64,000 bases of DNA from Kiritimatiellia bacterium (GTDB taxonomy: Bacteria > Verrucomicrobiota > Kiritimatiellia > RFP12 > DVOR01): assembly GCA_036651955.1 (NCBI GenBank), contig JAVVWU010000002.1, forward strand, positions 6,459-70,458, written 5' to 3'. This document shows, piece after piece, positions 11,660-55,740 of the stretch. Under the pieces are notes generated by a model. It worked only from the letters and a program-made list of their open reading frames with translations. It was not told where the DNA came from and did no database searches. The translations under genes and the position numbers were made by a program. Positions within the stretch are counted from its first letter, which is position 1. Each line of letters starts with the position of its first letter.

Positions 11660-12805
11660 TTGAAAGTAGGGATACGAGTGAAAAAATTTGAAACGCCGAT
11701 ACTTGTTACGCGTCCATGGCTTCCTCCATTGGAGGAGTTCTCACAGGGACTAGCTGAAATCTGGAAGAATCAATGGCTGACAAATAATGGGCCGGTATTG
11801 GAACGTTTCCAAGCGGCACTCGCGCAACAGTTGGGATTGAGTACGAGGAATTTGTCGTTATTTGCAAATGGGACTTTAGCACTTGAGTTGATGTTTCAAA
11901 CGTTAGGGCTTGCCGGAGCAGAAGTTGTTACGACACCTTTTACATTTGTTGCAACCAGTCATGCGTTACGCCGGATCGGTGCAATTCCTGTATTTGCAGA
12001 TGTCGATCCGGAAACGCTATGCCTTTCACCTGAAGCGGCTGAACGAATGATTACGTCACGTACCAAGGCAATTGTTCCTGTACACGTCTACGGACATCCT
12101 TGCGATATCGATGGTTTTGCGCGATTGGGAGAAAAGTACGGGCTGAAAATCGTTTATGATGCGGCTCACTCATTTGGTGTTACGCTTGATGGCGCTTCAA
12201 TTGCGACTTATGGCGATGCGTCTATGTTTAGTTTCCATTCCACAAAACTCTTTCATAGTATTGAAGGCGGGTTGCTAACTTTTCGAGATGCAACAATTCA
12301 AGGTGGATTAGAGTGTTTGCGCAATTTCGCGATTACTTCTGAAACGACGTGTGATGCGATTGGCACGAATGCCAAAATGAACGAATTTGCTGCACTTATG
12401 GGCTGTTGTGGGCTTCGTCAATTGCCCGATCTGATTGCTCATCGCAAGGCGATTTAGGAGATTTACGCTCAAGCATTTGAAGGAACGCCAGTGAAATTGT
12501 TGGCGCGTCCAACGCATATGGCGCGGCATACGGTTGGACACAACTATGCTTACTGCCCTGTACTTCTTCCTGATTTTGAAATGCGAGAGCGCGTTTATGC
12601 GCGATTGAAAGCGTTTAATGTCTTTACACGTCGCTACTTTTACCCTCTGCTTTCGGCATTTGCTCCCTATCAAGATACGCGTGGAAATACGCCCATTGCC
12701 AAAAAAGCAGCTGATTGTGTCTTAACGCTTCCAACCTATCATGGGCTTGCCCTTGAAGATGTTCGTGTCATTGCTCAAAACGTTGTAGAGCTTGTTCAAT
12801 GTTGA
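11660..12805 (+). pseudogene. DegT/DnrJ/EryC1 (ArnB/PglE-like) sugar aminotransferase interrupted by an in-frame TAG at 12455-12457
   Basis: The two ORFs 11660-12457 and 12491-12805 are in the same frame. Conceptual read-through gives ...HRKAI*EIYAQAF..HNYAYCPVLL, a contiguous DegT sequence. Confidence 0.7.
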
Positions 12806-13620
12806 AACGTCTTATTATTGTTGGTGCTAGCGGTATGGGGCGTGAAGTCGCGTCTTATGCAAAAGAGGCTTTGCCGACACTTTCAATCGCAGGATTCTTG
12901 GATGATCGATCTGATTTATTGAACTCCTTTGATGGATTACCGCCCATCCTTGGATCTGTCGAAGCGTGTCATCCGCAAAAGAACGATTACTATCTTGTGG
13001 CTGTAGGTGATGCAGAAGCGCGTGCGCATTATGTTGATTGTCTTATGGTTCGTGGGGCGCATTTTGCAACGCTTATTCATCCGACTGCGTTTGTCGCGTC
13101 ATCAGCAACGCTGGGAGAAGGATGTATTATTTGCCCACAAAGTGCGGTTTCTACAAACGTTCTAATGGGGCGGCATACAATCCTCAATTTAGGTGCATCG
13201 GTAAGTCATGATTGTGAAGTGGCAGATTTTTGTACGCTCTCTCCGGGCGCTCGACTTACAGGCGCCTGTCATTTAGGACAAGGCTGTTTTCTTGGGGTGA
13301 ACGCGTCGCTGATTCCGAAGATTCATTTGTCCGCGTACACGAGTGTGGGTGCAGGGGCTGTTGTAATCCACGCCGTTCCAGAATGTCATACAACGCTTGC
13401 AGGCGTTCCGGCGCACGAGATTTCTCGTGGGGGGGGGTGGAATTCGTGGCAAAATCTCCATCAAAAAGAATGTAATTGCATAAAGTTTACGTCTTCTGTC
13501 AGATTACAAAGAGATTCTAAACAACACATTTATTTTGATACAAAGCGTACTTTCTCTAAGAGGGAAAGTACGCCGTCATTTTTACGATTATACAGTTCAT
13601 CAATTATGAAGGTAAGTTAA
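12799..13620 (+). CDS. NeuD/PglD-family sugar N-acetyltransferase (hexapeptide repeat). The last ~60 aa are likely an artefact of the poly-G tract at 13431-13439; the -1 frame ends at 13481.
   Basis: MLKRLIIVGASGMGRE N-terminus with left-handed beta-helix repeats. The ORF runs through an intrinsic terminator. Confidence 0.7.
   Translation: MLKRLIIVGASGMGREVASYAKEALPTLSIAGFLDDRSDLLNSFDGLPPILGSVEACHPQKNDYYLVAVGDAEARAHYVDCLMVRGAHFATLIHPTAFVASSATLGEGCIICPQSAVSTNVLMGRHTILNLGASVSHDCEVADFCTLSPGARLTGACHLGQGCFLGVNASLIPKIHLSAYTSVGAGAVVIHAVPECHTTLAGVPAHEISRGGGWNSWQNLHQKECNCIKFTSSVRLQRDSKQHIYFDTKRTFSKRESTPSFLRLYSSSIMKVS
13545..13584 (+). terminator. Rho-independent terminator (10-bp stem gcgtactttc/gaaagtacgc, then a T-run)
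   Basis: Seen directly. It lies inside the annotated 3' extension of ORF 12799-13620. Confidence 0.6.
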
Positions 13621-13621
13621 A

Positions 13622-14254
13622 ATGCGGAAATCGGTTTATATTATCGGTGCGCGTGGATTTGGTCGTGAGTGTGCGAATAATCTTCAAATGGATCAGCGGT
13701 TCAGAGAAAATTATGAACTGAAAGGATTCTTAGATGACAAAGCAGATGCACTCAATGGATTTGATAATTATCCTCCGATAGTTTCCTCGGTAGAGGACTT
13801 TATCCCACGGGAAAACGATGTCTTTGTCTGCGGACTTGGCAAAAATGAATATCGTAAGAAGTACATTGAAATAATGTTAAGTAAAAAGGCATATTTCCAA
13901 ACGTTCATTCATCCGACTGCAATTATTCATCCAACAGCAGTTCTTGGAGTTGGTGTTCTTGTTGGGGCAATGACAACTGTAAGTGCAGATGTAAAGGTCG
14001 GAGATTTTACACTTATCCACCCATACAACTGTTTAGGTCATGATACTGTTTTAGAACGGTTTTGCGTGAGTGAATGCTTTAGCTTCTTTGGCGGATTCTC
14101 ATTTGTGGGTGAAGGTGCAACGATTCATACGCGTGCAACAATTCTTCCACATATAAAGGTAGGTCGTGGAGCCGTCGTTGGGGCAGGAAGTGTTGTTCTT
14201 CGCTCTGTATCTGAAGGTACAACCGTTTTTGGTAATCCAGCGATTAGATTTTAA
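13622..14254 (+). CDS. NeuD/PglD-family sugar N-acetyltransferase, paralog B, in a low-GC block
   Basis: MRKSVYIIGARGFGRE N-terminus with hexapeptide repeats. Visibly AT-richer than its neighbours. Confidence 0.8.
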   Translation: MRKSVYIIGARGFGRECANNLQMDQRFRENYELKGFLDDKADALNGFDNYPPIVSSVEDFIPRENDVFVCGLGKNEYRKKYIEIMLSKKAYFQTFIHPTAIIHPTAVLGVGVLVGAMTTVSADVKVGDFTLIHPYNCLGHDTVLERFCVSECFSFFGGFSFVGEGATIHTRATILPHIKVGRGAVVGAGSVVLRSVSEGTTVFGNPAIRF

Positions 14255-14273: not shown

Positions 14274-15257
14274 TCACGATTGTGCAGGCATTCTGTTGTG
14301 CCAGATTTTGGGGTGGGCTGGGAGGTTGGTAGGGGCGTAGCCGGGGAGTTGTTCGTGCATGGTTGGAACGGATGGGTGAAGCAGATCTGTCGTTGCAATG
14401 GTACGTGCCGCGTGTGGCAAAAGCTTCCATGGTCCGGTGAGGGAATCGTGTAGAACATATGAGATTTTTTGGCTCATCGGCTTACTTTCACTGGGTGCAT
14501 GATCTACGAATAAAAGCCCATGTTCGCGTGCGCGATCGCACATCCATGCAAGTGTAGTTTCGGGAAGTCCACGCCCACTATAGCCGCCACCAATGTCTGT
14601 ATGGGAACCGGCAAACCAAACTTCGGTTACGCGTGAGTCTGAAATAAAACGGGTAGGAGAGAATGCGTTGCGGCATTCGTCGATGGCGAGTGCGTGGTAG
14701 GCGGCATTGACGCAAGCCGGTAAAGTTTGAATGCCAAAATCTTCGGTGAAGGTCGTTTGTACCGTGTCCCATACGCCGAGCATCTCAATGGGGACGTTCT
14801 TGTACCCATGTTGAGTAGAGAGGCTTTTTGCCAGCGCTACATCGTGACTTCTAAAGGCTTTTATCGCAAGTTGTTCACTCTCTTTCATCGGCGGAATACC
14901 ACAGAAGTCAATGAGACTTGCTAACCATCGTGCCGCAAAAGCACCTCGGCTGAATCCGAAAATATAGAGACGCGGTGTTAATCCTTTATCAAAAGCATGC
15001 GCGCAATCGCGTTGTGCTGTACGATAGGCTTCAATGACACGGCTTTCTAAGTTTACACCGGCAACACTTCCGGGAATGAATTCATCGGGACGTGTGCCAA
15101 TGCCGGCTTCATAATGTGTGATTTGAGCTGTTACGTCTAGCACGGATACCCACCGTTGCAATCGGGCAACATTTCCCCACTGTTCTTTTATTTTCGCTTG
15201 ATCAATATCCATGTCGGTGCCATCAATGGTAAGAACGATATTAAAGAATTTAGGCAT
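14274..15257 (-). CDS. DUF2235 alpha/beta hydrolase (T6SS Tle1-like phospholipase domain)
   Basis: N-terminal IDGTDMD, a GFSRGA nucleophile elbow and WFAGSHTDIGGGY. AAGGAG RBS. Confidence 0.75.
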   Translation of the reverse strand: MPKFFNIVLTIDGTDMDIDQAKIKEQWGNVARLQRWVSVLDVTAQITHYEAGIGTRPDEFIPGSVAGVNLESRVIEAYRTAQRDCAHAFDKGLTPRLYIFGFSRGAFAARWLASLIDFCGIPPMKESEQLAIKAFRSHDVALAKSLSTQHGYKNVPIEMLGVWDTVQTTFTEDFGIQTLPACVNAAYHALAIDECRNAFSPTRFISDSRVTEVWFAGSHTDIGGGYSGRGLPETTLAWMCDRAREHGLLFVDHAPSESKPMSQKISYVLHDSLTGPWKLLPHAARTIATTDLLHPSVPTMHEQLPGYAPTNLPAHPKIWHNRMPAQS

Positions 15258-15281
15258 GGTCTCTTCTCCTTATTTTATACT

Positions 15282-15629
15282 TTAATCTTCGGGCATTTCG
15301 GGGCCTGTTGTGGAGTCTGGGATTGCCCACCATTCCACTTCTACGGGAGAATAAAGCCCCAGGCTGAGTACGGTAAGTAAGGCATCAAGGTAAGTTGTCC
15401 GATAATGAACTTTGGTAAGTCCGCCGACCGAACTCTTTGAGGCTTTCCAATCGCTGTTCCATGGATAAGTCCGCCATAGCGTCCCTTGATAATATTCGAC
15501 TTGATGTTCGCCACCGTCGGGGCCAAAGGCTTCAACTGGGACAGACATTTTACACCCATCTAAGAAAACCATTGCAGTGATTAAAGAACCACTGAATATT
15601 ATCCTAACAACTAACGAACGAATGCGCAT
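15282..15629 (-). CDS. Bor/Iss-family outer-membrane lipoprotein
   Basis: Signal peptide with an LDGC lipobox. LSLGLYSPVEVEWW resembles lambda Bor GFITLGIYTPLEARVYC. TAAGGAGG RBS. Confidence 0.6.
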   Translation of the reverse strand: MRIRSLVVRIIFSGSLITAMVFLDGCKMSVPVEAFGPDGGEHQVEYYQGTLWRTYPWNSDWKASKSSVGGLTKVHYRTTYLDALLTVLSLGLYSPVEVEWWAIPDSTTGPEMPED

Positions 15630-16096
15630 ATCGCCTCCTTACTTACGTAGGGAGTTTAGCATAAAAGCTTTGTGAGATATTCTGACGTGTCGTGAAAAGA
15701 GTGGATTGCAGTTGTGGCTTGATGCCATTACGTCGTTTGGCTTACTTTTGAATTTCTCTTTTCTAACGATTTGTAACGGCTTTTTCTTCACATTGATTGA
15801 GTGGCTGTGCTAAGATGAACCGAACGAATGAAAGCTTTGAATAATGATTTACGGAATCGCGCACGAAATATTGATGATGCCCGTTAAACCTTGTCTTTTT
15901 AAGGACGAGTTTGAGACGGTGTGCGTTCTTTTTGCTAAAGCTTCCAAAAGTAACTTCATCCTAAAAAAATACCGTAATACCACAGTGGACTCCCTGTGGA
16001 GACTAAAGGGGGCTGCGCTTTTTTCAATGCGTATTCTCAACGGATTTGAGCGGGTTTGTCTCGGCAACGAGGAAAACAAGAAAAGGGGGCATTAAG

Positions 16097-17038: not shown

Positions 17039-18330
17039 TGGATACGGTTTCTTCTGCCGAAGTTTATGCGCATCTCCGCGAGAGTAGCGTTACTCTTTGC
17101 AGGGAAAGCGTTGGAATGCCCACGGAAGCGCAATTACAGGCGGTGTGGTTTGATTCGGCATTGCGTCCGGTAGATCTTGCGCTTCCCGATGGTACGCCAC
17201 TCACGGTGCTTGAACCGGGGGTGTGGAATCGCGTGGATGGTCCTGATTTTCACGATGCGCTTCTTTCCATTGGTGGCATTCTTCGTCGAGGTGATGTGGA
17301 GTTGCACCTTCGCCCTTCCGATTGGGACGCGCATGGTCATGCGACTGATCCTGCATATGCGAATCTAATTCTTCATGTCGTCTGGGAGGCAACGCCTCTC
17401 GCCAAAGGGCTTCCGGTGAAGCTTCCGCAACTCGTCTTGCGCCCGTTTGTGGAGCAGAACGGCCCTTATTCTTTCGATGCAATCGACTTGTCTCATTATC
17501 CCTATCAAACGTTGAGCGACAATACGCGACCGTGTTTTCTCAATCTTACAGAAAATCCCGGTGCAACCGATCGCCTGCTTGTTTCGGCTGGGTACTTTAG
17601 GTTGCAAACTAAAAGCAAAGTTTTTGCAGATGCTGTGCGCGCGGGCGATGCGTTTCAAGCCTTTTATGAAGCCCTTCTCACAACGATGGGGTATCGCCGT
17701 AATACGCTCCCTTTTCATCAACTCGCACACGAAATTTCGTTTGCAAGCATTAAGCCCTTTCCCTCTCTCCAACGTTTTGCCATCCTTGCAGGAGTCGCTG
17801 GACTTTTGAGCCCGGAAGGACAGAGCCCACTGTGGAATCTTTGGTGGCAAAGTGGTATTCAGCCTTCTTTAACAGCTTATGCGTGGGATTTCCGAACACT
17901 TCGTCCGCAAAATCATCCATTTCGTCGTTTGGCAGGTGCGGTTGGAATAGTTCATTCCATTGCCAAGCTTTTGGAGCTTCCGCTTGATAAACTTCCGGAT
18001 GCACTTGTTGACGCCTCTACACTTCTTTGTGAGCCCTTGAAATTACGTTCGGGTGCGCCCATTGGTAAAACACGTGCCAACGCGATTGTCACGAACCTTT
18101 TTATCCCGTACCGGTTAGCACTTGGATCGCTTGAACTTGATCAACTCCACGCGTTGCCAAGTGAAGATGTTTCCGCTCCCATGCGTGAGGTGTGGCATCG
18201 CTTAACAGGTGAGTCACCGAATTCATTGCCGAGGGAAGGGCTTCGTCAACAGGGATTGCTTCAAATCCACGCCGACTTTTGTCACAATCCGCGTCTCGTC
18301 TGTGCTACGTGTCCCCTTGCTAAGAAATGA
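17038..18330 (+). CDS. DUF2851-family protein
   Basis: HLRPSDWDAHGH-type motif. TAATG overlap with corA. Confidence 0.6.
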   Translation: MDTVSSAEVYAHLRESSVTLCRESVGMPTEAQLQAVWFDSALRPVDLALPDGTPLTVLEPGVWNRVDGPDFHDALLSIGGILRRGDVELHLRPSDWDAHGHATDPAYANLILHVVWEATPLAKGLPVKLPQLVLRPFVEQNGPYSFDAIDLSHYPYQTLSDNTRPCFLNLTENPGATDRLLVSAGYFRLQTKSKVFADAVRAGDAFQAFYEALLTTMGYRRNTLPFHQLAHEISFASIKPFPSLQRFAILAGVAGLLSPEGQSPLWNLWWQSGIQPSLTAYAWDFRTLRPQNHPFRRLAGAVGIVHSIAKLLELPLDKLPDALVDASTLLCEPLKLRSGAPIGKTRANAIVTNLFIPYRLALGSLELDQLHALPSEDVSAPMREVWHRLTGESPNSLPREGLRQQGLLQIHADFCHNPRLVCATCPLAKK

Positions 18331-18343
18331 ACATAAGGAATCT

Positions 18344-20440
18344 GTGAGTACGACACGTCATTTTGTTTACTGGACGATTTATCCTAATACACATCAACGT
18401 GCATGGATTGATGAATTACGTGCCGAAGGATGTGATATTGAAGTTTGTTATTTTGGACATTATGATGCCTATCGCACGGACATGGGCTGGCGTGAGCCAA
18501 AAACTTTACCGAAGCAAGAACATTTCTTCTCTACGCTTGAAGAAGCACGTCGTCAAATTTCAGACTATGCGCAACGTACGGCAATCCTTACTGGATACCA
18601 CGATAAAATTTATTGGGAGGTGCTTCACTTTTGTGAAACTCAAAATCTCCCTTGGGTTTTCTTTGCAGAAGGGTCTCAAGGACGTTGGCGTTCTTTATGG
18701 CAACGGCGTCTCTTTGCGCATCATGTTAATCGTTCTGCACTTCACGCCTTTGCAATTGGCTCAAGCGGCGTAGCTGATTTCATTGACGGTTGGGGAATCG
18801 ATCCAGATAAAGTTTCACAACTTCCTTATGTAACGCCTCGTGCCGAACATCCAACAGTGCCACTTCCACACAGCGAGTACCGTTTTGTCTTTGTCGGGGC
18901 ATTCATCTACCGTAAAGCGATTGATGTTTTAGCCGATGCGTGGCGACAGTTTGCTCCTACGCATCCCAATGCGGTGCTTCGTATCATTGGCGATGGACCT
19001 TTGCGTTCTTGTTTTGATGGGCTTCCTCGTGTCGAACGGTGTGGTGTCCTTCCTCCCGAACGTATCGCGGAACAGTTTGTGGATTGCGATTGCGGACTTT
19101 TACCGAGCCGATTTGATGGATGGGGAATGGTGTTGGCAGAATATGTGCGCGCCGGATTGACATTGATTGGTACAGACCGTTGTGGCGCGTCTGAAACGCT
19201 TATCCGTCCCGGACGTAATGGTTATATTATTCCTGCGGCGGAACTCTCGGCGCTTGTACAAGCACTTGAAGATGTACCTCTTCTTGTCGCTGATTCCGCT
19301 GTATTGACTGCTACGTCCGCGAAAACTTGTGTCCATACGTTTCTCTCAACAATCGAGAACGGTATAAAAGAAGCTCACGCTCAATCTTTTGTACATATTG
19401 CCGCCGGATGTTGGAAAGACGGTGGAGGCCTTTCGGAATCTGTTGCGCTCACAGCCCTTCATCAGGCACGGAGAGGATATCGAGTGACGCTCGCCTTCCT
19501 CGGTGGGGCAGAAGAGCATCCACTCCTTCGCGAGTGTCGCCGTGCGGGCGTGACGATTCACGTGTTCCCACGCACCGGTTCAAAGTCGTTTTACTTTTCA
19601 TGGACAATGCTTTTGCAGTTGCGTACGCTTATACGGCAAAGTTCTCGTGTCTATCTCCATGGATGTTGGACGTTCCCAATCTTTTGGGGCGCACGCTGCG
19701 CACATCGGACGGGCGTCCCATATTTTTGTTCGCCACACGGAGCTCTCAATCTTGTTTATCGGCGGTATGGACGAATCCGTAAATGGGTGGCATGGGTTTT
19801 ATTTAATCGTCACGTACTTTTAGGGGCAACCGCACTGCATGCCTGTTCGGAAACCGAGGCGCAAACATTACGTGAGGTCCTTCGTGCGCCCTGTCCTCCG
19901 ATTCGTATCATTCCGAACGCTGTGAATGGTGCAGAGCTTGATGCGGTTGCGGAACAATCGCGTACGCAGACTTTTTTATTTCTTGGACGACTACATCCGC
20001 TTAAAGGTCTTGACCTTCTTGCCGAAGCGTGGCGAATTGCGAATCTAACCACATGGACACTGGCGATTGCTGGTACAAATGAAGGTGTTCATCTCCCTTT
20101 GGCTCCACGAATGCACCTCCTGGGTGCGCTTCATGGCGAAGCAAAAGTACGTGCTCTTAAATCTGCTGCTTGTTTAATTCTCCCGACACGTTCGGAAAAC
20201 TTCGGTATGGTTGTTGCCGAAGCGCTTTGGTGCCGCACGCCTGTCATCTGTACGAAAGGTGCACCATGGTCAGAACTCGGCGACTTCTGGGTCGATATTA
20301 CGGCAGAAGCTCTTGCGGATGCCATGCGCCGTATGGCGGCTCTTACGGACTCCGAACGTGACGCTCGTTTCGCTCCACTTTTTGATGTCGCGCATGAACG
20401 CTTTTCGCCTTCAAAGATCGCCGCGATACTCGCAGAATAA
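18344..20440 (+). CDS. Tandem GT4 (group-1) glycosyltransferase fusion. The start is uncertain.
   Basis: Two GT4 C-terminal domains with (E)X7E-like motifs. The ORF-track start at 18209 overlaps the upstream gene. Confidence 0.7.
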   Translation: MSTTRHFVYWTIYPNTHQRAWIDELRAEGCDIEVCYFGHYDAYRTDMGWREPKTLPKQEHFFSTLEEARRQISDYAQRTAILTGYHDKIYWEVLHFCETQNLPWVFFAEGSQGRWRSLWQRRLFAHHVNRSALHAFAIGSSGVADFIDGWGIDPDKVSQLPYVTPRAEHPTVPLPHSEYRFVFVGAFIYRKAIDVLADAWRQFAPTHPNAVLRIIGDGPLRSCFDGLPRVERCGVLPPERIAEQFVDCDCGLLPSRFDGWGMVLAEYVRAGLTLIGTDRCGASETLIRPGRNGYIIPAAELSALVQALEDVPLLVADSAVLTATSAKTCVHTFLSTIENGIKEAHAQSFVHIAAGCWKDGGGLSESVALTALHQARRGYRVTLAFLGGAEEHPLLRECRRAGVTIHVFPRTGSKSFYFSWTMLLQLRTLIRQSSRVYLHGCWTFPIFWGARCAHRTGVPYFCSPHGALNLVYRRYGRIRKWVAWVLFNRHVLLGATALHACSETEAQTLREVLRAPCPPIRIIPNAVNGAELDAVAEQSRTQTFLFLGRLHPLKGLDLLAEAWRIANLTTWTLAIAGTNEGVHLPLAPRMHLLGALHGEAKVRALKSAACLILPTRSENFGMVVAEALWCRTPVICTKGAPWSELGDFWVDITAEALADAMRRMAALTDSERDARFAPLFDVAHERFSPSKIAAILAE

Positions 20441-20479: not shown

Positions 20480-21211
20480 ATGTGGAGACTAATCAATCTG
20501 AGTTTAATTGGAATTATTGGATTCTGTGGATGTGTTAGAACAACTGCAGTTGAGTCTGATAAGAGTTTGAGAACGAGCGCACAACAAGCGTTTTCAATGG
20601 GGGAGTATAATCGCGCAAAAGCATTGATTATGCAAGCGGATCGCTATCAGGTTCCATGGACGGAACTTTCACGCCGCACACTTGATTTGCGTATTGCACA
20701 AGCAGAAAATGTACAAAATGGAGAACTTCAGTTTCTTCAAGATGCTTGGCTCAAACAATATGATCGTTGGACAGCAGAGGAACGTGCGGACGCTCAACTC
20801 ACGATGATTGAAACGTTACGTCCAGAATATGCGCTTGATCAATTGCGTGACATTGATACTTATGGGTGGTCAGCCGAATTACGCGCACGTTATAATTTAC
20901 TCTTTGCACGTCTCCTTGCCGGTCGTCCCGAACTTTATGATACAACCATTGCAAAGTGGACGATGGGCATTAAGGCACTTTATAAGACCGGTAAAAAAGA
21001 CGTTGCGGCGCGTGAAGCTGAACGATGTGCAACACTGATGAAAAATGCAAATGCTGCATTGATTGCCGCGAAGATTCATAATGAGTTGCATCATATGAAG
21101 TCGAAAGAAGATGCGATCCTTCTCGGGCTTTCATTCTCATCAGAGAGCGATATCTTGCATGAGGTCAACCTTATCCGTTCTGCATCTCTTGGAACTAAAA
21201 GCCAACTCTGA
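20480..21211 (+). CDS. Hypothetical secreted protein or lipoprotein
   Basis: N-terminal hydrophobic segment with cysteines. No known domain. Confidence 0.45.
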   Translation: MWRLINLSLIGIIGFCGCVRTTAVESDKSLRTSAQQAFSMGEYNRAKALIMQADRYQVPWTELSRRTLDLRIAQAENVQNGELQFLQDAWLKQYDRWTAEERADAQLTMIETLRPEYALDQLRDIDTYGWSAELRARYNLLFARLLAGRPELYDTTIAKWTMGIKALYKTGKKDVAAREAERCATLMKNANAALIAAKIHNELHHMKSKEDAILLGLSFSSESDILHEVNLIRSASLGTKSQL

Positions 21212-21273
21212 TGAAGAAAATTCATGAGAGATGCAGTAAAAGTGCCACTTTATTATAGAAAAGAGAATTAACT

Positions 21274-22551
21274 ATGGCGGATGGAGATACACGACGTTGG
21301 TCGCTTCGCAATCCCAGCGCAGAGATTAGTAACAACAATATTCCTACGGCGATGCTTGTACAGTGGGCGTCGCAAGGAATTGTTAAGCCGGGCTATACGC
21401 TCTCCACCGATGGAATCTCATGGGTTCCTGCCGAAACACTTCCCGAGCTTAATATGACGTGGTATATCCTTGCTCCGGAACGTCCGCCCTACGGACCTAT
21501 CACTCAAGCCGCTGCAGAAAAATTTATCGCGGAAGCTCTTTTCCCTCGGAACTCTGTTCTCTCACAAAATCCGGGCGATCAGCCCGTTTCGATTGAGCTT
21601 CCTTTACATCTTGTTATCCCGGAAGAATCTCATCAACAAGAAGTGGAAGAAACGCGCAAACGTCTTGTATTACTTGAGAAAGAACTTCGGATTAAAGATC
21701 GTCGCATTAACGAATTGCGGCAAGAAGCTGAAATGCACCAATCTGAATTGAACGTTGATAATATCCCCGACGCAAAGACGCTCGCCGCTGAACTTGAACA
21801 AACGCGATTAGAATATGCCCACCTTAAGGCTTCTGCTCAAGAAGCCGAAGAAGCTTCTGCCCAGCATGAGCGTGAATTGCGTCAGCGGATCCATACGCTT
21901 GATACTGCCCTCGAAAAAGCTCAAAGCACACTTCCGCCGGAAGCACCGCCAGATGAAACGCTTTTTGCAATTCTTTCCAAAGAAGCGGAACTCCTTCGTC
22001 AAGGACAAGAAGAAGAACAACGATTGCTAGACCAAATCCGTGAACTTGCACGGATGCGTCTGGTTCAGCTTTCAGAGCGTCTCCGTGACATTTGCAAACT
22101 TACCGGAGACACGCCTCTACAGATGCGCGAAAATATTCGGCGAGAAGGTTATATTCATCCGATTACCGTTGTCCAACGTTCCAACCCTACCGGTAATGCC
22201 GAATTAGAAAAAAGCCTTTCCGCCGCCCTCGCGCGTGAAAGTGCTTTGCAAAAACAGCTTATTTCGCTTGAAGCACGTGAAACGGAATTGCGTACTAAAG
22301 TCGGTCAAGCCGAACGTCAAACGCTTGATTCCCTCACCCTTGATGAAAAGTTAAGAGAAACTGCGAAAGCTTTGGAACGCGAACGGCATTCTCGCGAAGA
22401 AGAACATCGTGAAAATGCGCATATTCAAGAGCAATTGCTTCGTCGTATTGAGGAACTTGAACGTAATGCAATTCCGGCGACCGCGCCAATTCTTGAGTCT
22501 CCGTCAGTCGAACGCCCCGCGTCGAACTTCGGATGGCTTCGGAAGAAATGA
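21274..22551 (+). CDS. DUF4339 (GYF-like) repeat protein with a long coiled-coil region
   Basis: W...GP...W repeats at the N-terminus. Heptad-rich E/R/L C-terminal half. Confidence 0.5.
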   Translation: MADGDTRRWSLRNPSAEISNNNIPTAMLVQWASQGIVKPGYTLSTDGISWVPAETLPELNMTWYILAPERPPYGPITQAAAEKFIAEALFPRNSVLSQNPGDQPVSIELPLHLVIPEESHQQEVEETRKRLVLLEKELRIKDRRINELRQEAEMHQSELNVDNIPDAKTLAAELEQTRLEYAHLKASAQEAEEASAQHERELRQRIHTLDTALEKAQSTLPPEAPPDETLFAILSKEAELLRQGQEEEQRLLDQIRELARMRLVQLSERLRDICKLTGDTPLQMRENIRREGYIHPITVVQRSNPTGNAELEKSLSAALARESALQKQLISLEARETELRTKVGQAERQTLDSLTLDEKLRETAKALERERHSREEEHRENAHIQEQLLRRIEELERNAIPATAPILESPSVERPASNFGWLRKK

Positions 22552-28730: not shown

Positions 28731-30815
28731 ATGAAACAGACTTTTCTTTTGTTGTTTACAATCTTTGCTGGCTTGCTGGCGGGAATAGCCTATCGTCTTT
28801 ATGGGCAGTGGACGGGAGAGGCTTCGGTGTGGGGCGTGATTGTGCCGAGTATGGTTGCTGCATTATCGTTGGCATGGTTGACGCGTCGGTGGGTAGGGGG
28901 AAGAGGTTGTGCTGCGCTGGCGGTTCTTTGTGCGGTGATGGCCTTTTCAATGTTTGGTCATACCGTGCAAATGGTTCACGACTGGACATTCCTTTCGCTT
29001 AAAATCAATCTGACGTATCGGGAGTGGTGGCTGTTCGTATTAAATCATGCCATGATGTGGTTCGTGCCATTAGCGTTCACGCTCGTTTATATTTGGCGGT
29101 GCAATGCGATTCCTCGTGGTCGTATGACGGCGTTTGTGGGTGCATGTGTCGGGCTTATTTTGGCGCGATTGATGGTGGGAAGAATGTCCACAACATTGTT
29201 GATAGACATTTGCCTTGTTGGACTTTTACTTTCGGCTCCTGCATGGTTGGCAGCGGAGTTGCGGGGGAAATGGACGCGAGGATCGGCATTTGTACTTGCT
29301 GTAGTTCTTTTAGTCGGATGGTATTTTACTTCGCGTTCTGCACCGCAAGAATTATTACGGGATGTGAATCCATTTGCAACGATTGCCACGCGCGATTTGC
29401 TTTATACGGGAATTGGTACGGAGGGAGTGACGTTGCGGGAAGGTCGTTTACTTCGACGTGTTGGATTTGATACCGCCTCCAGTTTTGCCTCGCAACTGAT
29501 TCCAACGCTGTTGAAGCCTCAGACGAATGCGCGTATTGCGGTGCGGCTTCTTGCCGGTGGTGAAGCACTTCCGACCTATGATGTGAATGAACTTAAAGGT
29601 CAATATGATGCTTTGTACGTGGAGCTTCCGCCGGCATGGGTGACTTCCGAAAGAGATTATTTTGGAACGGCGGCACTGGATGCGGCATTGACGCATTTGT
29701 TTCAGGATGGTGTACTCGTTTATGCGATGGATGCAAGATGCCTTGATGCTCGAATGATGATGGAGCGTGTGGCGATTCTTCGTCAACGATTTGGAAATGT
29801 TCAGCTTTGGATGACAGGACGTGACCAATGGCAATTAGTTGCTTCGCGTTCGCCTATTACGACGGACTTTGTGGCGGTTTCAACGCTTTTGGATCGTCCC
29901 GAATTAGCGCATGCTCTTTTTGCCGCAGAGATTGATACTGCCATAAGTTTGTTCTCCTGCTTTATCGCAGAGGCGTCGGCGTTGGATAAAGCTTTGGCGG
30001 AACCAATCTCGCCGGAAATTCGTCCACGTGAGTCTACTCTCGCACGTAAGCTCCTGTTTGATGGTATTGGGAGCCAACGTTTATCAAAGGAGTTTGAACC
30101 TTTTCGTGATTATGAAATGTCGTGGGTGAAAGTTCCGACGGAATCGGGCGAGGATCTTCGTGCGGTATTAAAGGTCTTACAAACGGCGCGTCATTTGGCA
30201 ATTGAAGGGAAGCTCAAAGAAGCCTCTGAAATGAATCCTTGTGACCCTTATTTACTCGGGCTTGCAGATCGTGAAATCTCAAATGCACGTGCATGGGAGA
30301 AACTTGCGGAGCATGAAAAAGCAATCGCGTCCTATCTCTCTGCATTTGCGATTGCAAAGCCCAGCCTCATTGATGTGTTAGCGGCAGCGAGTATTGTCGA
30401 AGAAACAAGAACTCCTGAACGTGCTGAGCTGCTTTATAAACTCGCACATGATTTGGCGCCTGATAATATGGCTTATCTCTTCCAATATATGTCCTTCTTG
30501 AAAAATCGTAAACAGTATGTGAAAGCTCAGCAGATTGCAGACCGCGTTGTCTGTTTGGCGGGATCGTTCGATCTTGCCACACGTGCGATGCTTTTTTCTG
30601 CACAGATGGTCGTGCAGCAAGGGCGTGTCAAAGAGGGATTGGAAACGGCACGCCAATTGGCGGAGGCGGCTCAAACATCAGTCGATAAAGATTATTTTAT
30701 CCTCGCTTATGCTCAACTGCTCATTGATACGGGGTCGCCTGTTTTGGGGATCAATGTTAAACGACACTATGCTGCTTATCATGAACTGTTACCGCAGAAA
30801 GAGGAGAGAAAATGA
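28731..30815 (+). CDS. Polytopic membrane protein with a spermidine-synthase-like fold and a C-terminal TPR-like region
   Basis: Many TM helices, then LYVELPP...GVLVYA, then helical repeats. Assignment is tentative. Confidence 0.45.
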   Translation: MKQTFLLLFTIFAGLLAGIAYRLYGQWTGEASVWGVIVPSMVAALSLAWLTRRWVGGRGCAALAVLCAVMAFSMFGHTVQMVHDWTFLSLKINLTYREWWLFVLNHAMMWFVPLAFTLVYIWRCNAIPRGRMTAFVGACVGLILARLMVGRMSTTLLIDICLVGLLLSAPAWLAAELRGKWTRGSAFVLAVVLLVGWYFTSRSAPQELLRDVNPFATIATRDLLYTGIGTEGVTLREGRLLRRVGFDTASSFASQLIPTLLKPQTNARIAVRLLAGGEALPTYDVNELKGQYDALYVELPPAWVTSERDYFGTAALDAALTHLFQDGVLVYAMDARCLDARMMMERVAILRQRFGNVQLWMTGRDQWQLVASRSPITTDFVAVSTLLDRPELAHALFAAEIDTAISLFSCFIAEASALDKALAEPISPEIRPRESTLARKLLFDGIGSQRLSKEFEPFRDYEMSWVKVPTESGEDLRAVLKVLQTARHLAIEGKLKEASEMNPCDPYLLGLADREISNARAWEKLAEHEKAIASYLSAFAIAKPSLIDVLAAASIVEETRTPERAELLYKLAHDLAPDNMAYLFQYMSFLKNRKQYVKAQQIADRVVCLAGSFDLATRAMLFSAQMVVQQGRVKEGLETARQLAEAAQTSVDKDYFILAYAQLLIDTGSPVLGINVKRHYAAYHELLPQKEERK

Positions 30816-31423
30816 AAAAACAGGTATTGATTCTTGGTGCGGGCGGTTTGGGGCGTGAAGTCTTTCATTGGGCACACGATTGCGGTTATGAAGTCCTTGG
30901 GCTGATAGACGACAATCAAAATGCGCTTGAAGGCTACAAAGGTTACGCCCATATTCTCGGAGGCGTTGATGATATTCCTCTTATGGCGCCTATTATTTGT
31001 GGCGTTGGTAAAAGTGCGGTGCGTCGAGCCTGTGTAGAACGGTTGCTCGTGCGCGGTGCAGAATTTGTTTCTTGTGTTCATCCGCTAGCGAAAGTTTTGG
31101 ACGGGAGTACGTTTGGGCGTGGAGCAGTGATTGCGCCCTTTGCCTATGTTGGAGCAGATGTGAACGTTGGCGATTTTCTTTTTATGCAGACAGGTGCAGT
31201 TTTAGGGCACGATGTTGCGGCAGGTGATTTTTTGCGAATGGATACCACCGCATTCGTTGGCGGTTTTTCGCAAATTGGAAATGATGTGACGCTTTATACC
31301 GGTGCAAAGGTAATGCCGGGGAAAACAGTGGGTGACCATTGTACGCTTGGGGCAGGATCGGTTCTGCTCAATAATTTATATGCAGGAGCAACGGCATTTG
31401 GTGTTCCTGCTCAAAAGATTTAA
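30812..31423 (+). CDS. NeuD/PglD-family sugar N-acetyltransferase, paralog C
   Basis: MKKQVLILGAGGLGRE with hexapeptide repeats. Confidence 0.8.
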   Translation: MKKQVLILGAGGLGREVFHWAHDCGYEVLGLIDDNQNALEGYKGYAHILGGVDDIPLMAPIICGVGKSAVRRACVERLLVRGAEFVSCVHPLAKVLDGSTFGRGAVIAPFAYVGADVNVGDFLFMQTGAVLGHDVAAGDFLRMDTTAFVGGFSQIGNDVTLYTGAKVMPGKTVGDHCTLGAGSVLLNNLYAGATAFGVPAQKI

Positions 31424-38280: not shown

Positions 38281-38357
38281 CGGAGCGTAGCGCAGCCTGG
38301 TAGCGCGTTTGGTTCGGGACCAAAAGGTCGAGGGTTCAAATCCCTCCGCTCCGACCA
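38281..38357 (+). tRNA. tRNA-Pro (CGG)
   Basis: Cloverleaf by hand. Anticodon loop ttCGGga. 3' CCA is encoded. Confidence 0.8.
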
Positions 38358-38374
38358 TTACTTAAGGTAACGTC

Positions 38375-38459
38375 GCACCCGTGGTGGAATTGGCAGACAC
38401 GTAAGATTCAGGTTCTTATGTCGAGAGACGTGTGGGTTCGAGTCCCACCGGGTGCACCA
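38375..38459 (+). tRNA. tRNA-Leu (CAG), class II with a long variable arm
   Basis: Anticodon loop ttCAGgt. T-loop TTCGAGT. CCA is encoded. Confidence 0.8.
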
Positions 38460-38473
38460 CATGACTCCATGAT

Positions 38474-38548
38474 GCCCCCATCGTCTATCGGCTAGGACAC
38501 AAGGTTCTCATCCTTGGAAGAGCAGTCCGACTCTGCTTGGGGGTGCCA
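38474..38548 (+). tRNA. tRNA-Glu (CTC), with a G1-U72 wobble and a TCC T-loop
   Basis: Anticodon loop ttCTCat. The acceptor and T-loop are atypical, so this needs tRNAscan confirmation. Confidence 0.55.
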
Positions 38549-38551
38549 TCT

Positions 38552-38641
38552 GGAGAGGTGGCAGAGCCTGGTTGAATGCACATGACTCGAAATCATGCGT
38601 GCCGCAAGGTACCGTGGGTCCAAATCCCACCCTCTCCGCCA
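38552..38641 (+). tRNA. tRNA-Ser (CGA), class II
   Basis: Acceptor ggagagg/cctctcc. Anticodon loop ctCGAaa. Long variable arm. CCA is encoded. Confidence 0.75.
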
Positions 38642-53245: not shown

Positions 53246-53820
53246 TAAAGTAAGTCCTCTAATTCGGCATCGTTCCATGCGGGCAATGCCAGAATATGTT
53301 CCAATAAAAGTCCGCAGGCGACAGCATCATAAAAGGCATTGTGCGGAGAACGTCCCGGCACTAATTCTGTGAGACGTGGCAATAATCCAAGCATCGGAAT
53401 CAGATTTTCTAAAGCATAACTGGAAAGGTTTGGATAGACTCGGCGCATCAGTGTCAACGTATCGACCCACTGCGGATAATGTGTCATAGGCGCAAGACGT
53501 GCCAAAAGCGTTCGTTCGGTGGAAATATTATGCGCGACTGGAATTGACACGGAAAGGAGTTGGTTCAAATGTTGCCAAAGGCTTGAAAACGTCGGAGCTT
53601 CCGCAAGAACTTCACGATGAAGTTGATAATCGCCGGGAACAATTGACGCGAAAGGATGTGTCATAGGTACGTTTAGATACGTGTCTATTAAAGGGGCGGC
53701 AAGATCAATCTTACCGCCACGAAGGGAGACAACACCTAATTGCCACGGAAGATTGGGATACCCTTTAACGTTCCCCGTGGTTTCAAAATCAATTGCCGTA
53801 AACGTCTGAACAATCTTCAC
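53245..53820 (-). CDS. DnaQ-like 3'-5' exonuclease (DEDDh)
   Basis: FTAIDFETTG exo I and a H..YDA exo III motif. Confidence 0.75.
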   Translation of the reverse strand: MKIVQTFTAIDFETTGNVKGYPNLPWQLGVVSLRGGKIDLAAPLIDTYLNVPMTHPFASIVPGDYQLHREVLAEAPTFSSLWQHLNQLLSVSIPVAHNISTERTLLARLAPMTHYPQWVDTLTLMRRVYPNLSSYALENLIPMLGLLPRLTELVPGRSPHNAFYDAVACGLLLEHILALPAWNDAELEDLL

Positions 53821-55247
53821 TTCACCTCATCCAAGGGAATCCGTAAGAAGTAATGATAGCTTTCATTGCTTTCATAAAGAACGCCAATGGCATTCTTTCC
53901 AACCGGCGCCAGCGACGAATACCCCCATGTGGCGCGCGGATCGTAACAGATCCCTGCCGACCATGTCTTTCCGTCATCTGCTGAAACTTTGAGCGTCATC
54001 GTATCCCGTTTCCCTGAATTAGGATTCGAGAAATAGAGTTTATCGCCAATTCGTAACATTGCGCCTTGGCAGACCGGCTGACGCAACCGCCCTGTTTCCG
54101 TCGAGCTATTGGGATCTTTCATCCACGTAGCACCTAAATCTTTGGTAATTCCTGCTGCACGCCATCCACCTGCACCTTCACGCGTGTTAAGAACAATCGA
54201 ACCATCTTTCAATTCCGCACACGTTGATTCAGATCCGCCCATTTCCATTTCTTTAGAAGAGGTCCATGTTTTACCATGATCTTTGGAATAGACTAATACG
54301 CCATAATGCTTTTTCCCCCAAATTTGTGCAGGAAATACCAACGTGCCGTCCTTCATTGCGATACCGTTGCCGGGACCTTGAAAAACGCATCCCCACTGTG
54401 CCGTATCGGCATCTTTCATTCGTTTCACATCCGTTGTGATATTGATGGGATCGGACCACGTCTTTCCTTCATTGTCGGAATACGCGAGATAGAGTTGCCC
54501 GCATATCTCAGGCTTATCTGACCCTGCCGCCGACCAAATGGGGTTGCCTTTTTTGGAGGCGAGTACTGCGGCGATCCAAATCCGATTATTGGACGGATCC
54601 ACGAGGATACAAGGGTCTCCAATTCCTTGTCCGCCAGAAAGTCCTTTGTAATTCATTGCCGTATGAATGGGCGACCAAGTGTTGCCTTGATCTTTTGAAG
54701 TGCTTACTCCCACAGTGATATCTGCAGGCAAATCGCCCGCATGGTTATAGCGATTATCAAAAACAGCAACCAGTGTTCCCTTCATTGTTTCTACAATACC
54801 GGGAATACGAAACGCCTTACAAATTCTTTTAGTATCTTGAATCTTTTGCCCCGGACGCGTAACAATACTACCGATGCGAATGGCAGCACCTTCAACCATC
54901 ACCTTACGTGAAAGATCGGCTTTGGGAGATAATTCCAAATAGAGGTCAAATGTTGTTTCTTTGGCTGTAACAGGCATCTTAAACGAATAAACATTCCCAA
55001 TACCCGATCGCCCTTGAACTTCTCCCAAGCGGACTTTCTTCAAATCGCTTGCCATTGTTCCTTGAAATGAAACTTTTACGGTTTCAGTTTTTGCTGCACC
55101 ATCTGCTGTTACTGTAACCTTTGCGACCGATACGTCATCGCGTCCAATAAATGCGGGGATGCCTGTGGGTGCAACCTTAATGGCGGTTACTGCCGCAGGT
55201 AGAGTGGCACATACAAGAAGAGCAACGAACGTAAGTAATGTTTTCAT
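53817..55247 (-). CDS. Secreted GH33 exo-alpha-sialidase (BNR/Asp-box)
   Basis: Signal peptide, a FRIP motif, and five SxDxGxTW Asp boxes. A longer start at 55316 is possible. Confidence 0.85.
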   Translation of the reverse strand: MKTLLTFVALLVCATLPAAVTAIKVAPTGIPAFIGRDDVSVAKVTVTADGAAKTETVKVSFQGTMASDLKKVRLGEVQGRSGIGNVYSFKMPVTAKETTFDLYLELSPKADLSRKVMVEGAAIRIGSIVTRPGQKIQDTKRICKAFRIPGIVETMKGTLVAVFDNRYNHAGDLPADITVGVSTSKDQGNTWSPIHTAMNYKGLSGGQGIGDPCILVDPSNNRIWIAAVLASKKGNPIWSAAGSDKPEICGQLYLAYSDNEGKTWSDPINITTDVKRMKDADTAQWGCVFQGPGNGIAMKDGTLVFPAQIWGKKHYGVLVYSKDHGKTWTSSKEMEMGGSESTCAELKDGSIVLNTREGAGGWRAAGITKDLGATWMKDPNSSTETGRLRQPVCQGAMLRIGDKLYFSNPNSGKRDTMTLKVSADDGKTWSAGICYDPRATWGYSSLAPVGKNAIGVLYESNESYHYFLRIPLDEVK

Positions 55248-55740
55248 AAAGTTCCTAAGTAAGGCAGTTATAAAAGTCAACCTTGGCAGTCTAACAAAAT
55301 CTAAATACTTTGACACACTTTTGACATGTTATTGACAGAAGTATACTCAAGTACTCGTTATAAACGAGAGTAGTCAAATCTTCGACTTCCAGTTCCCGCG
55401 CTTCGTCCTGTAACATCCTTCTTCAACGGAGGCGCTACATATTATTTACTTTGGCACTGCGATTCTCTTGATGCCGCTTACCCTTCTAAGAGCATCATTC
55501 GTATCGGATAATGGAGGAAAGATTGTCCGAAGTGGAGTGTCTGGCTCTCTAAAGTAGGTAGGATGGATGATCACGAAGCGGAATTTATAAAAGTTGGATA
55601 TTTGAAATATTCTGTAGGGTAAGCGCAGAGTCCTGTTCCAATGAATGAAGCGGTCTGTGTCCAAGAGTGTACAGGGAAACTGTTTATTACAGGTAGTAAG
55701 AGCGTAGTGCCCTCAAAAGTTGATATAGTAGGAGAAATGA

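Follow-up and report, generated by a model that had tools for sequence, protein, structure and literature searches.

Why would a Tle1-type lipase domain be encoded directly behind a gene for a small Bor-like lipoprotein, with no type VI secretion system (T6SS) gene in the surrounding 64 kb? The question is raised by a two-gene cassette in a 64,000-nucleotide stretch of DNA from a Kiritimatiellia bacterium (here called the window; all positions refer to it). The original prediction for this locus had described a lipoprotein-lipase pair embedded in a glycan and transport neighborhood. Its functional pairing was supported by conservation, gene overlap, and codivergence, whereas the link to the neighborhood was not supported, as the flanking genes differ in each relative. 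The cassette consists of the following two genes.

15282..15629, minus strand: gene for a Bor-superfamily lipoprotein of 115 amino acids (aa), first gene of the cassette
14274..15257, minus strand: gene for a stand-alone DUF2235/Tle1-fold alpha/beta hydrolase of 327 aa, second gene of the cassette

Conservation and spread of the lipoprotein-hydrolase pair

When the three closest hydrolase relatives (40 to 46% identity) were looked up, a homologous lipoprotein gene was found directly upstream in all three, and altogether the partner was present in five of the five closest relatives examined. Among 80 hydrolase loci from species-representative genomes, it occurred only in the two closest, a Desulfuromonadales and a Victivallales metagenome-assembled genome (MAG). 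A hydrolase with 99% identity was present together with the same lipoprotein in a Kiritimatiellia MAG. Word-indexed searching with the lipoprotein recovered only the lipoprotein itself; a profile built from six lipoproteins retrieved at least 145 clusters of 100- to 125-aa proteins, nearly all of them unnamed. Reverse look-ups from lipoproteins of the paired family revealed a DUF2235 gene immediately downstream in every case (7/7). A metagenome scan seeded with the lipoprotein motif alone yielded 63 loci, and all that were testable (∼60) had the hydrolase gene behind the lipoprotein gene in the same orientation; the seeming deviations (L122, L134, and L151) are contig ends. That the pairing is obligate and strictly conserved is strongly supported. 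In the literature on DUF2235, including that which also names lipoproteins, we found no description of a pairing with a Bor-like lipoprotein; what is new in this lipase-lipoprotein pair is the partner family, the minimal enzyme, the phyla, and the lack of a linked secretion system.

The intergenic gap ranged from −8 to about +30 bp across relatives. The genes overlapped by 8 bp in three loci (L088, L092, and L002) and by 4 bp in another (L085), and were otherwise 4 to 30 bp apart. Since overlaps of 4 to 8 bp occurred in several lineages, translational coupling is suggested. Pairwise identities of the lipoprotein and the hydrolase correlated with an r of 0.95 (37 distinct complete pairs), as is expected for coinherited neighbors; the informative part is the equal conservation, with a mean identity of 50% for the mature lipoprotein versus 53% for the hydrolase in these 37 pairs. 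A chance adjacency of two unrelated genes has in its favor only the prior that any genes can adjoin. Order and strand were the same in every testable relative, overlap was frequent, and the two proteins codiverged while the other neighbors changed. Because the pair recurs in all testable loci and codiverges, chance adjacency is excluded for all practical purposes.

Carriers of the cassette belong to the Kiritimatiellia, the Victivallales/Lentisphaeria, the Desulfobacterota, and the Gammaproteobacteria, a patchy distribution across phyla. The complete genome of Sulfuriflexus mobilis (AP018725) is among those with the cassette. The flanks of 12 other loci were unrelated each time, comprising trp genes, oxaloacetate decarboxylase, Rnf, TonB receptors, and ATP-binding cassette (ABC) transporters, among others. 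Because of this patchy cross-phylum spread and the unrelated flanks, the cassette is best explained as a horizontally mobile module of the accessory type. On plasmids, only distant DUF2235 genes (∼30% identity) were found, and these were without the partner.

Within the window, the cassette is framed by the following elements.

15634..15640, minus strand: Shine-Dalgarno (SD) sequence AAGGAGG, 4 nucleotides (nt) before the lipoprotein ATG (15629-15627)
15258..15281, minus strand: intergenic spacer of 24 bp, holding AAGGAG (15271-15266), 8 nt before the hydrolase ATG
15630..16045, no strand: divergent intergenic region of 416 bp between the cassette (minus strand) and a corA-like gene (plus strand)

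The two SD elements, with their spacings of 4 and 8 nt, agree with the strong ribosome binding sites that had been claimed for both genes. The stop codon of the hydrolase gene lies 19 bp from the convergent end (14254) of a PglD-like acetyltransferase gene. As the neighbors are convergent on one side and divergent on the other, the lipoprotein and hydrolase genes constitute their own two-gene transcription unit. Its promoter is presumably located in 15630..16045, a position deduced from this layout; a scan for consensus promoters and terminators gave nothing above shuffled sequence.

Predicted properties of the two proteins

The hydrolase matched Pfam PF09994 (T6SS_Tle1-like_cat) with an E value of 6.2e-45 (154.2 bits; cutoff, 27). 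The match spans residues 6 to 241, equivalent to profile positions 2 to 286 of 287, and is the only domain in the protein. Both the DUF2235/Tle1-type domain of the original prediction, with its DGT, GFSRG, and WFAGSHTDIGGGY features, and the absence of a delivery domain from a 327-aa protein were thereby borne out; a delivery domain is ruled out because the protein is too short to hold one. The sequence contains LTIDGTDMD, GFSRG, and WFAGSHTDIGGGY, and the following residues are predicted to form the active site.

14949..14951, minus strand: codon AGC for Ser103, the predicted nucleophile in the GFSRG elbow, invariant and aligned to the GFSRG of solved Tle1 proteins
14766..14768, minus strand: codon for Asp164, the predicted catalytic acid in the motif G-V-W-D-T-V, aligned to G(L/I)FDTV of 4o5p and 9j3f
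14601..14603, minus strand: codon for His219, the predicted catalytic base in the motif G-S-H-T-D-I-G-G-G-Y, aligned to GVHSDVGGGY of 4o5p and 9j3f

This triad, which was assigned from sequence motifs and alignment, was invariant in 37 of 37 distinct complete paired homologs. A profile of 35 hydrolase relatives likewise aligned GFSRG, GvwDTV, and GvHsDvGGGY to the solved Tle1-type proteins 9j3f, 4o5p, and 6sjl. The AlphaFold2 model of the hydrolase had a predicted local distance difference test score (pLDDT) of 87.5 and a predicted template modeling score (pTM) of 0.90. When it was compared with the PDB by Foldseek, the five best hits were all of the Tle1 type: PaTle1 (4o5p; E = 1e-10), Tle1 of enteroaggregative Escherichia coli (EAEC) (6sjl and 6ski), TleB (9j3f), and Legionella lpg2422 (4m0m). 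Generic lipases and esterases appeared only at E values of ≥7e-4. The likeness is confined to the catalytic module, since the targets comprise 520 to 880 aa and the TM-scores normalized to the target were 0.24 to 0.29. Residues 1 to 245 make up the catalytic core, which is followed by a conserved C-terminal subdomain (residues 246 to 322) ending in Y-x-P-x-N-L-P. The first beta-strand, bearing the DGT motif, starts at residue 4 and the Pfam match at residue 6; as this leaves no space, a signal peptide is absent. By these motifs and alignments, the hydrolase is a member of the DUF2235 fold family with a putatively intact Ser-Asp-His triad. No NCBIfam model matched either the hydrolase or the lipoprotein.

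The lipoprotein begins with an Arg-rich n-region, which is followed by a hydrophobic stretch and the lipobox ...VFLDGC (L-D-G-C26). Its length of 115 aa, the LDGC lipobox, the 24-bp spacing, and the shared strand are all as originally described. Its processing was read from sequence alone, as follows.

Residues 1-25: predicted lipoprotein signal peptide
15552..15554, minus strand: codon TGT for Cys26, the lipobox Cys and predicted lipidation site, followed by K27 and M28
15546-15548, minus strand: codon for M28, the start used by NCBI for an 88-aa call

The mature lipoprotein comprises ∼90 aa with a predicted fold of four beta-strands and one hydrophobic helix, and its C-terminal part carries a LGLYSPVEVEWW segment. 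The lipobox Cys was invariant in all 70 family members; the LDGC of the window has an atypical Asp at position −2, where relatives show ISGC, LSGC, LAGC, and similar sequences. In a near-identical Kiritimatiellia MAG, NCBI called the same gene (P0121) as an 88-aa protein starting from Met28 (77% coverage). This call (window 15546-15629) omits the signal peptide and the lipobox, and because the lipobox Cys is invariant, we judged it to be too short. Of 59 distinct family members, 35 had a Met no more than four residues past the lipobox Cys, compared to a Met background of 0.9%, and an SD-like motif was found upstream of this internal Met in only 2 of these 35. An alternative internal start that might give rise to a cytosolic isoform is speculative, and the idea stays weak because SD-like motifs are nearly absent despite the strong enrichment of Met. 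Some subclades have two further conserved Cys residues (KCDNG...EWWC), which fits an oxidizing compartment.

On its own, the window lipoprotein scored 23.6 bits against Pfam Lambda_Bor (PF06291; gathering cutoff, 25), and the match was limited to residues 70 to 101 in its C-terminal third. Matches to Lambda_Bor at an E value of ≤0.01 were obtained for 30 of the 70 family members, with essentially no other Pfam family. Alignment of the 70-member family (A4) with lambda Bor (NP_597780, locus L091, from NC_001416) by hhalign gave a probability of 94.4% and an E value of 8.9e-8 over 86 columns that cover Bor residues 5 to 95 of 97, part of this score stemming from the signal peptide and the lipobox. 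A bridging remote member, P0300, scored 30.2 bits against Lambda_Bor, which is above the Pfam cutoff, and 98.7% against the family profile. As judged from these comparisons, the window lipoprotein is a distant full-length Bor homolog, an assignment that is marginal for the single protein and solid at the level of the family; the resemblance to Bor/Iss that had been noted thus holds. With lambda Bor and E. coli Iss the family shares small size (about 97 to 115 aa), a lipobox Cys, homology over the full length, and a common C-terminal motif, ...L(L/V)xxx(S/T)LG(L/I)Y(S/T)P...(V/E)xx(W/Y)(W/C). In contrast to Bor and Iss, which are prophage- or plasmid-borne single genes without a hydrolase partner (as at the lambda locus L091), the window family resides on chromosomes, had no relatives in phage and viral collections, is invariably accompanied by DUF2235, and scores just under the Pfam cutoff.

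Delivery, protection, and competing explanations

The enzyme lacks a signal peptide while its partner is predicted to be exported, and this split between compartments would fit a toxin and its antidote. In our preferred reading, which we put forward tentatively, a catalytically active lipase, innocuous in the cytoplasm, would be paired with a cognate envelope lipoprotein that binds and neutralizes it in the periplasm. The hydrolase would be a minimal Tle1-fold Ser-Asp-His enzyme, whose likeliest activity is that of a phospholipase or esterase on membrane lipids; being made without an export signal, it would do no harm in the cytoplasm of its producer. The lipoprotein would leave the cytoplasm, receive its lipid at Cys26, and remain tethered to the envelope on the periplasmic side. 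If sorted as in E. coli, it would probably be destined for the outer membrane, because not a single member of the family has Asp at position +2 after the lipobox Cys. There it would bind and neutralize hydrolase reaching the periplasm, for example, from sibling cells or by leakage, following the logic of T6SS Tle lipases and their Tli lipoprotein immunity proteins. The hydrolase might leave the cell by a T6SS encoded elsewhere, by lysis/holin-type release, or in vesicles. We infer the lipid substrate, the toxicity, the binding and inhibition, the outer-membrane location, and the exit route. Toxin-immunity logic is favored because it is the sole well-precedented explanation of the compartment split, and the topology fits, by analogy, that of an effector-immunity pair.

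The closest precedent is Tle1 of Pseudomonas aeruginosa: it does no damage in the cytoplasm and kills bacteria only once directed to the periplasm. Tli proteins have either a lipoprotein signal or a Sec signal, Tli1a being an outer-membrane lipoprotein (PMC13133936). The cassette shares with T6SS Tle1/Tli1 pairs (PA3290/PA3291; EAEC; 4o5p and 6sjl) the DUF2235 fold, the GxSxG, DTV, and GxHxDxGGGY motifs, an enzyme without a signal peptide, and an adjacent cotranscribed gene for an exported lipoprotein. However, solved Tle1 proteins comprise 520 to 880 aa compared to 327 aa here, where the extra domains are missing, including the membrane-anchoring module D2-D4 of PaTle1 (PMC13133936). Moreover, no vgrG, adaptor, or T6SS genes were linked in the loci examined, and the hosts are PVC (Planctomycetes-Verrucomicrobia-Chlamydiae) bacteria, Desulfobacterota, and a few Gammaproteobacteria. 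Since both T6SS linkage and the extra domains are missing, the hydrolase is not filed as a T6SS Tle1 effector. The partner also differs from Tli1 in being a 90-aa Bor-fold protein instead of a DUF3304 protein. In Pfam scans, no DUF3304 (Tli1) domain was found in the window lipoprotein and five homologs (E ≤ 1) or in the 70 family members (E ≤ 0.01). A lipoprotein signal and adjacency to a lipase gene, which it does share with Tli1, are common properties and no evidence of homology.

A second precedent comes from the X-T4SS, a type IV secretion system (T4SS) of Xanthomonadales, whose immunity proteins (X-Tfis) are outer-membrane lipoproteins and some of whose effectors (X-Tfes) carry DUF2235; many X-Tfis have a Met soon after the lipobox Cys, for which an alternative start leading to a cytosolic form was proposed (PMC6536674). 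DUF2235, lipoprotein partners, and a Met after the lipobox Cys (35/59) are thus common to both systems. The X-Tfes, in contrast, end in an XVIPCD secretion domain and show linkage to a VirB-type T4SS. Both features are missing here, and the SD-like motif before the internal Met is confined to 2 of 35 members of our family.

Several observations weigh against the preferred reading. The partner does not belong to a known Tli family. By Pfam, the 64-kb window contained none of the genes for VgrG, Hcp, PAAR, adaptors (e.g., DUF4123), a T4SS, contact-dependent inhibition, Rhs, or a type I secretion system, and no secretion machinery was found in the Pfam-annotated flanks of the 12 other loci. When 333 neighboring proteins from 26 loci with at least 7 kb of sequence were clustered, no recurring third gene or delivery gene emerged. 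The lipoprotein is conserved as well as the enzyme, and neither orphan nor tandem partner genes occurred among the loci of the paired family, both of which are unusual for immunity genes. Distant short DUF2235 proteins exist without a Bor-like partner, including in monoderm Actinobacteria (Amycolatopsis, Streptomyces, and Gordonia). Since the Actinobacteria, a group lacking T6SSs, contain such partnerless, signal-less relatives, the ancestral enzyme may have had an ordinary cytoplasmic role. In addition, two remote Bor-like proteins (P0264 and P0300) are directly followed by FAD_binding_4 oxidases; these are signal-less and not known as toxins, and the role of the lipoprotein may therefore be more general than lipase immunity.

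The distant short DUF2235 proteins have ∼310 to 370 aa and about 28 to 37% identity to the hydrolase, and they are single-domain proteins that include the C-terminal subdomain. Of 80 such proteins, 76 start no more than 15 residues from the DGT strand and are thus without a signal peptide. These uncharacterized stand-alone enzymes from Actinobacteria, Acidobacteria, Bacteroidota, Legionella, and plasmids resemble the window hydrolase in architecture and in having no signal peptide but differ in having no Bor-like partner. Applied to these short stand-alone enzymes, the "T6SS" of the Pfam designation denotes nothing beyond the fold.

On the lipoprotein side, an exhaustive profile search returned 464 representative clusters. 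The best 150 of them were all 69 to 272 aa long, and among these no Rosetta-stone fusion of a Bor-like domain to the hydrolase was found. Six Bor-like proteins of 184 to 272 aa (P0253, P0264, P0299, P0304, P0316, and P0330) contain two or three tandem Bor-like domains behind one lipoprotein signal, and an intermediate member (P0260) is paired with DUF2235. The FAD_binding_4 pairs are located at L157:6001-8215, L158:5745-7959, and L161:1339-2881, with overlapping genes in L161. Identity between the two oxidases is 46%; three tandem Bor-like domains are present in P0264 and a single one in P0300. As in our cassette, an exported Bor-superfamily lipoprotein is encoded immediately upstream of a signal-less enzyme, which, however, is a flavin oxidoreductase instead of a hydrolase, and the lipoprotein has up to three tandem Bor-like domains. 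This pairing is apparently undescribed. Counting the DUF2235 and the FAD_binding_4 pairs, no fewer than two unrelated kinds of signal-less enzyme are thus encoded behind a gene for an exported Bor-like lipoprotein.

These sister pairs, fixed beside an oxidase in two divergent lineages, lend weight to a role outside of conflict, which is possible, if on the unlikely side. Bor-fold lipoproteins would then be general envelope partners (regulator, sensor, anchor, or docking site) of signal-less enzymes, and the cassette would serve the cell's own envelope or lipid physiology, e.g., lysophospholipid or acyl-chain turnover for lipoprotein or outer-membrane homeostasis, with the two proteins acting in one pathway on opposite sides of the inner membrane. 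The similar purifying selection on both proteins, their always single-copy and paired occurrence, the housekeeping genomic contexts, the wide spread of partnerless, cytoplasmic-type enzyme homologs, Actinobacteria included, and the lack of a match to defense-system models are in line with this. On the other hand, no mechanism is known to us that would let a lipoprotein of the outer membrane or periplasm cooperate directly with a soluble enzyme of the cytoplasm. The patchy cross-phylum spread and the unrelated flanks indicate a mobile accessory module, and all characterized members of the enzyme fold are toxins.

The missing machinery also bears on whether the pair is an orphan T6SS effector-immunity pair, with the hydrolase as VgrG or PAAR cargo of a T6SS encoded elsewhere and the lipoprotein as a new Tli-type immunity protein. 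The Tle1 fold would suit such a pair, as most characterized relatives and the DUF2235 literature that we found concern T6SSs, and lipoprotein immunity encoded next to the lipase is the Tle/Tli rule. Orphan pairs of effector and immunity genes, encoded at a distance from any T6SS cluster, are familiar, e.g., Tse1-3 of P. aeruginosa, and the genome was covered over 64 kb. We nevertheless consider this explanation doubtful, given that there is no linkage to vgrG, hcp, PAAR, or adaptor genes in the window and the 26 loci with at least 7 kb, that the 327-aa enzyme is without the extra domains of the 520- to 880-aa Tle1 proteins (including D2-D4), and that the nearest partnerless relatives reside in Actinobacteria without a T6SS. 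Furthermore, Kiritimatiellia and Victivallales are not known as T6SS users, and we found no relevant literature linking them to these systems.

Finally, the homology of the partner to a prophage lysogenic-conversion lipoprotein brings phages into consideration. The pair might form an exclusion, abortive-infection, or lysis/release module in which the lipoprotein senses or blocks an envelope event and the lipase degrades membranes or leaves the cell by a holin/endolysin route resembling a type X secretion system (T10SS). Bor, Cor, and Llp are prophage lipoproteins, and lipases are known as abortive-infection effectors, e.g., the patatin-like CapV in the cyclic oligonucleotide-based antiphage signaling system (CBASS). 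At one locus, L089:11536-12786, the cassette is directly followed on the same strand by genes for a GTA_holin_3TM protein (a weak match) and a Peptidase_M15_3 protein, a holin/endopeptidase pair that resembles lysis-type (T10SS-like) release modules. Holin/endolysin genes were, however, seen beside only this 1 of 26 loci, and no neighboring defense islands were seen. A known defense system was rejected, as no PADLOC-DB model matched either protein at an E value of ≤1, and so was a phage-borne origin: neither a tblastn search of 50,697 phage records with the hydrolase nor a search of IMG/VR contigs with the lipoprotein profile revealed a relative. We thus give a phage-related function little credence.

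Of the genes around the cassette, the original prediction had stated that they provide no T6SS context, and for the 64-kb window this proved correct. Pfam scanning of ∼52 open reading frames (ORFs) identified genes for translation factors, tRNA modification, glycan synthesis, transport, DNA polymerase III alpha, and isoprenoid synthesis, as well as for a pseudopilin, an FHA protein, and a TolC-like protein. A weak Pfam Tli3 match in a BNR/sialidase-like protein (53817-55316, minus strand) was dismissed as a repeat artifact, as it lies inside the BNR repeats and has no independent stretch. In the neighbor clustering, the sole recurrences were generic families (histidine kinases and resistance-nodulation-division [RND] and ABC transporters) or came from closely related genomes. 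In a Kiritimatiellia-type relative (L085:6547-8753; also L086), a 2,309-aa Rhs/YD-shell protein with a Colicin_M domain is encoded 4 kb downstream of the cassette, with six small genes in between that have no strong Pfam annotation (one weak DUF1573 match). This polymorphic toxin could mark a conflict island.

The window itself harbors a sizeable glycan-modification neighborhood that has no tie to the cassette in other genomes. It includes three paralogous PglD-like hexapeptide acetyltransferases (12799-14254 and 30812-31423, plus strand), two of them adjacent, glycosyltransferases of families GT2 and GT4, and a 743-aa ORF (18209-20440) with two glycosyltransferase modules. A DegT/DnrJ/EryC1-family aminotransferase gene (11660-12805, plus strand) contains one in-frame TAG at 12455-12457 (...HRKAI*EIYAQAFEG...). 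Homology continues in frame past this codon, indicating either a nonsense mutation in a pseudogene or a sequencing error. Three ORFs of 243, 425, and 694 aa (20480-22551 and 28731-30815, plus strand) had no Pfam match at an E value of ≤0.001, and four closely spaced tRNA genes (Pro-CGG, Leu-CAG, Glu-CTC, and Ser-CGA) are located at 38281-38641 on the plus strand.

Implications for Bor-fold lipoproteins and their carriers

The cassette is an undescribed two-gene unit, strictly conserved across phyla, which shows that Tle1-type lipases also have a place outside type VI secretion. Its carriers include Kiritimatiellia and Victivallales, in which interbacterial weapons are essentially unstudied. 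For annotation, the name T6SS_Tle1-like_cat on a member of the short stand-alone clade is not evidence of a T6SS effector, and gene callers cut the lipoprotein short by starting it at the Met behind the lipobox.

The Bor/Iss superfamily has been known for ∼30 years solely through its serum-resistance phenotype, and to our knowledge the mechanism of lambda Bor and E. coli Iss has never been explained. The fixed partnership of its members with signal-less enzymes is the first reproducible genomic-context clue for this superfamily, and it leads to the hypothesis that the Bor fold may be a specific enzyme-binding or -inhibiting module of the envelope. In a far-reaching and rather improbable extension of this idea, Bor-fold lipoproteins, including lambda Bor and Iss, would be general envelope-anchored binders of specific signal-less enzymes, with DUF2235 and FAD_binding_4 subfamilies, and the cassette would represent a lipase weapon, or a system for handling enzymes, that works without a T6SS and uses a route of release or docking not yet described. 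If this were true, the serum resistance conferred by Bor and Iss could reflect the binding and neutralization of a membrane-attacking enzyme.

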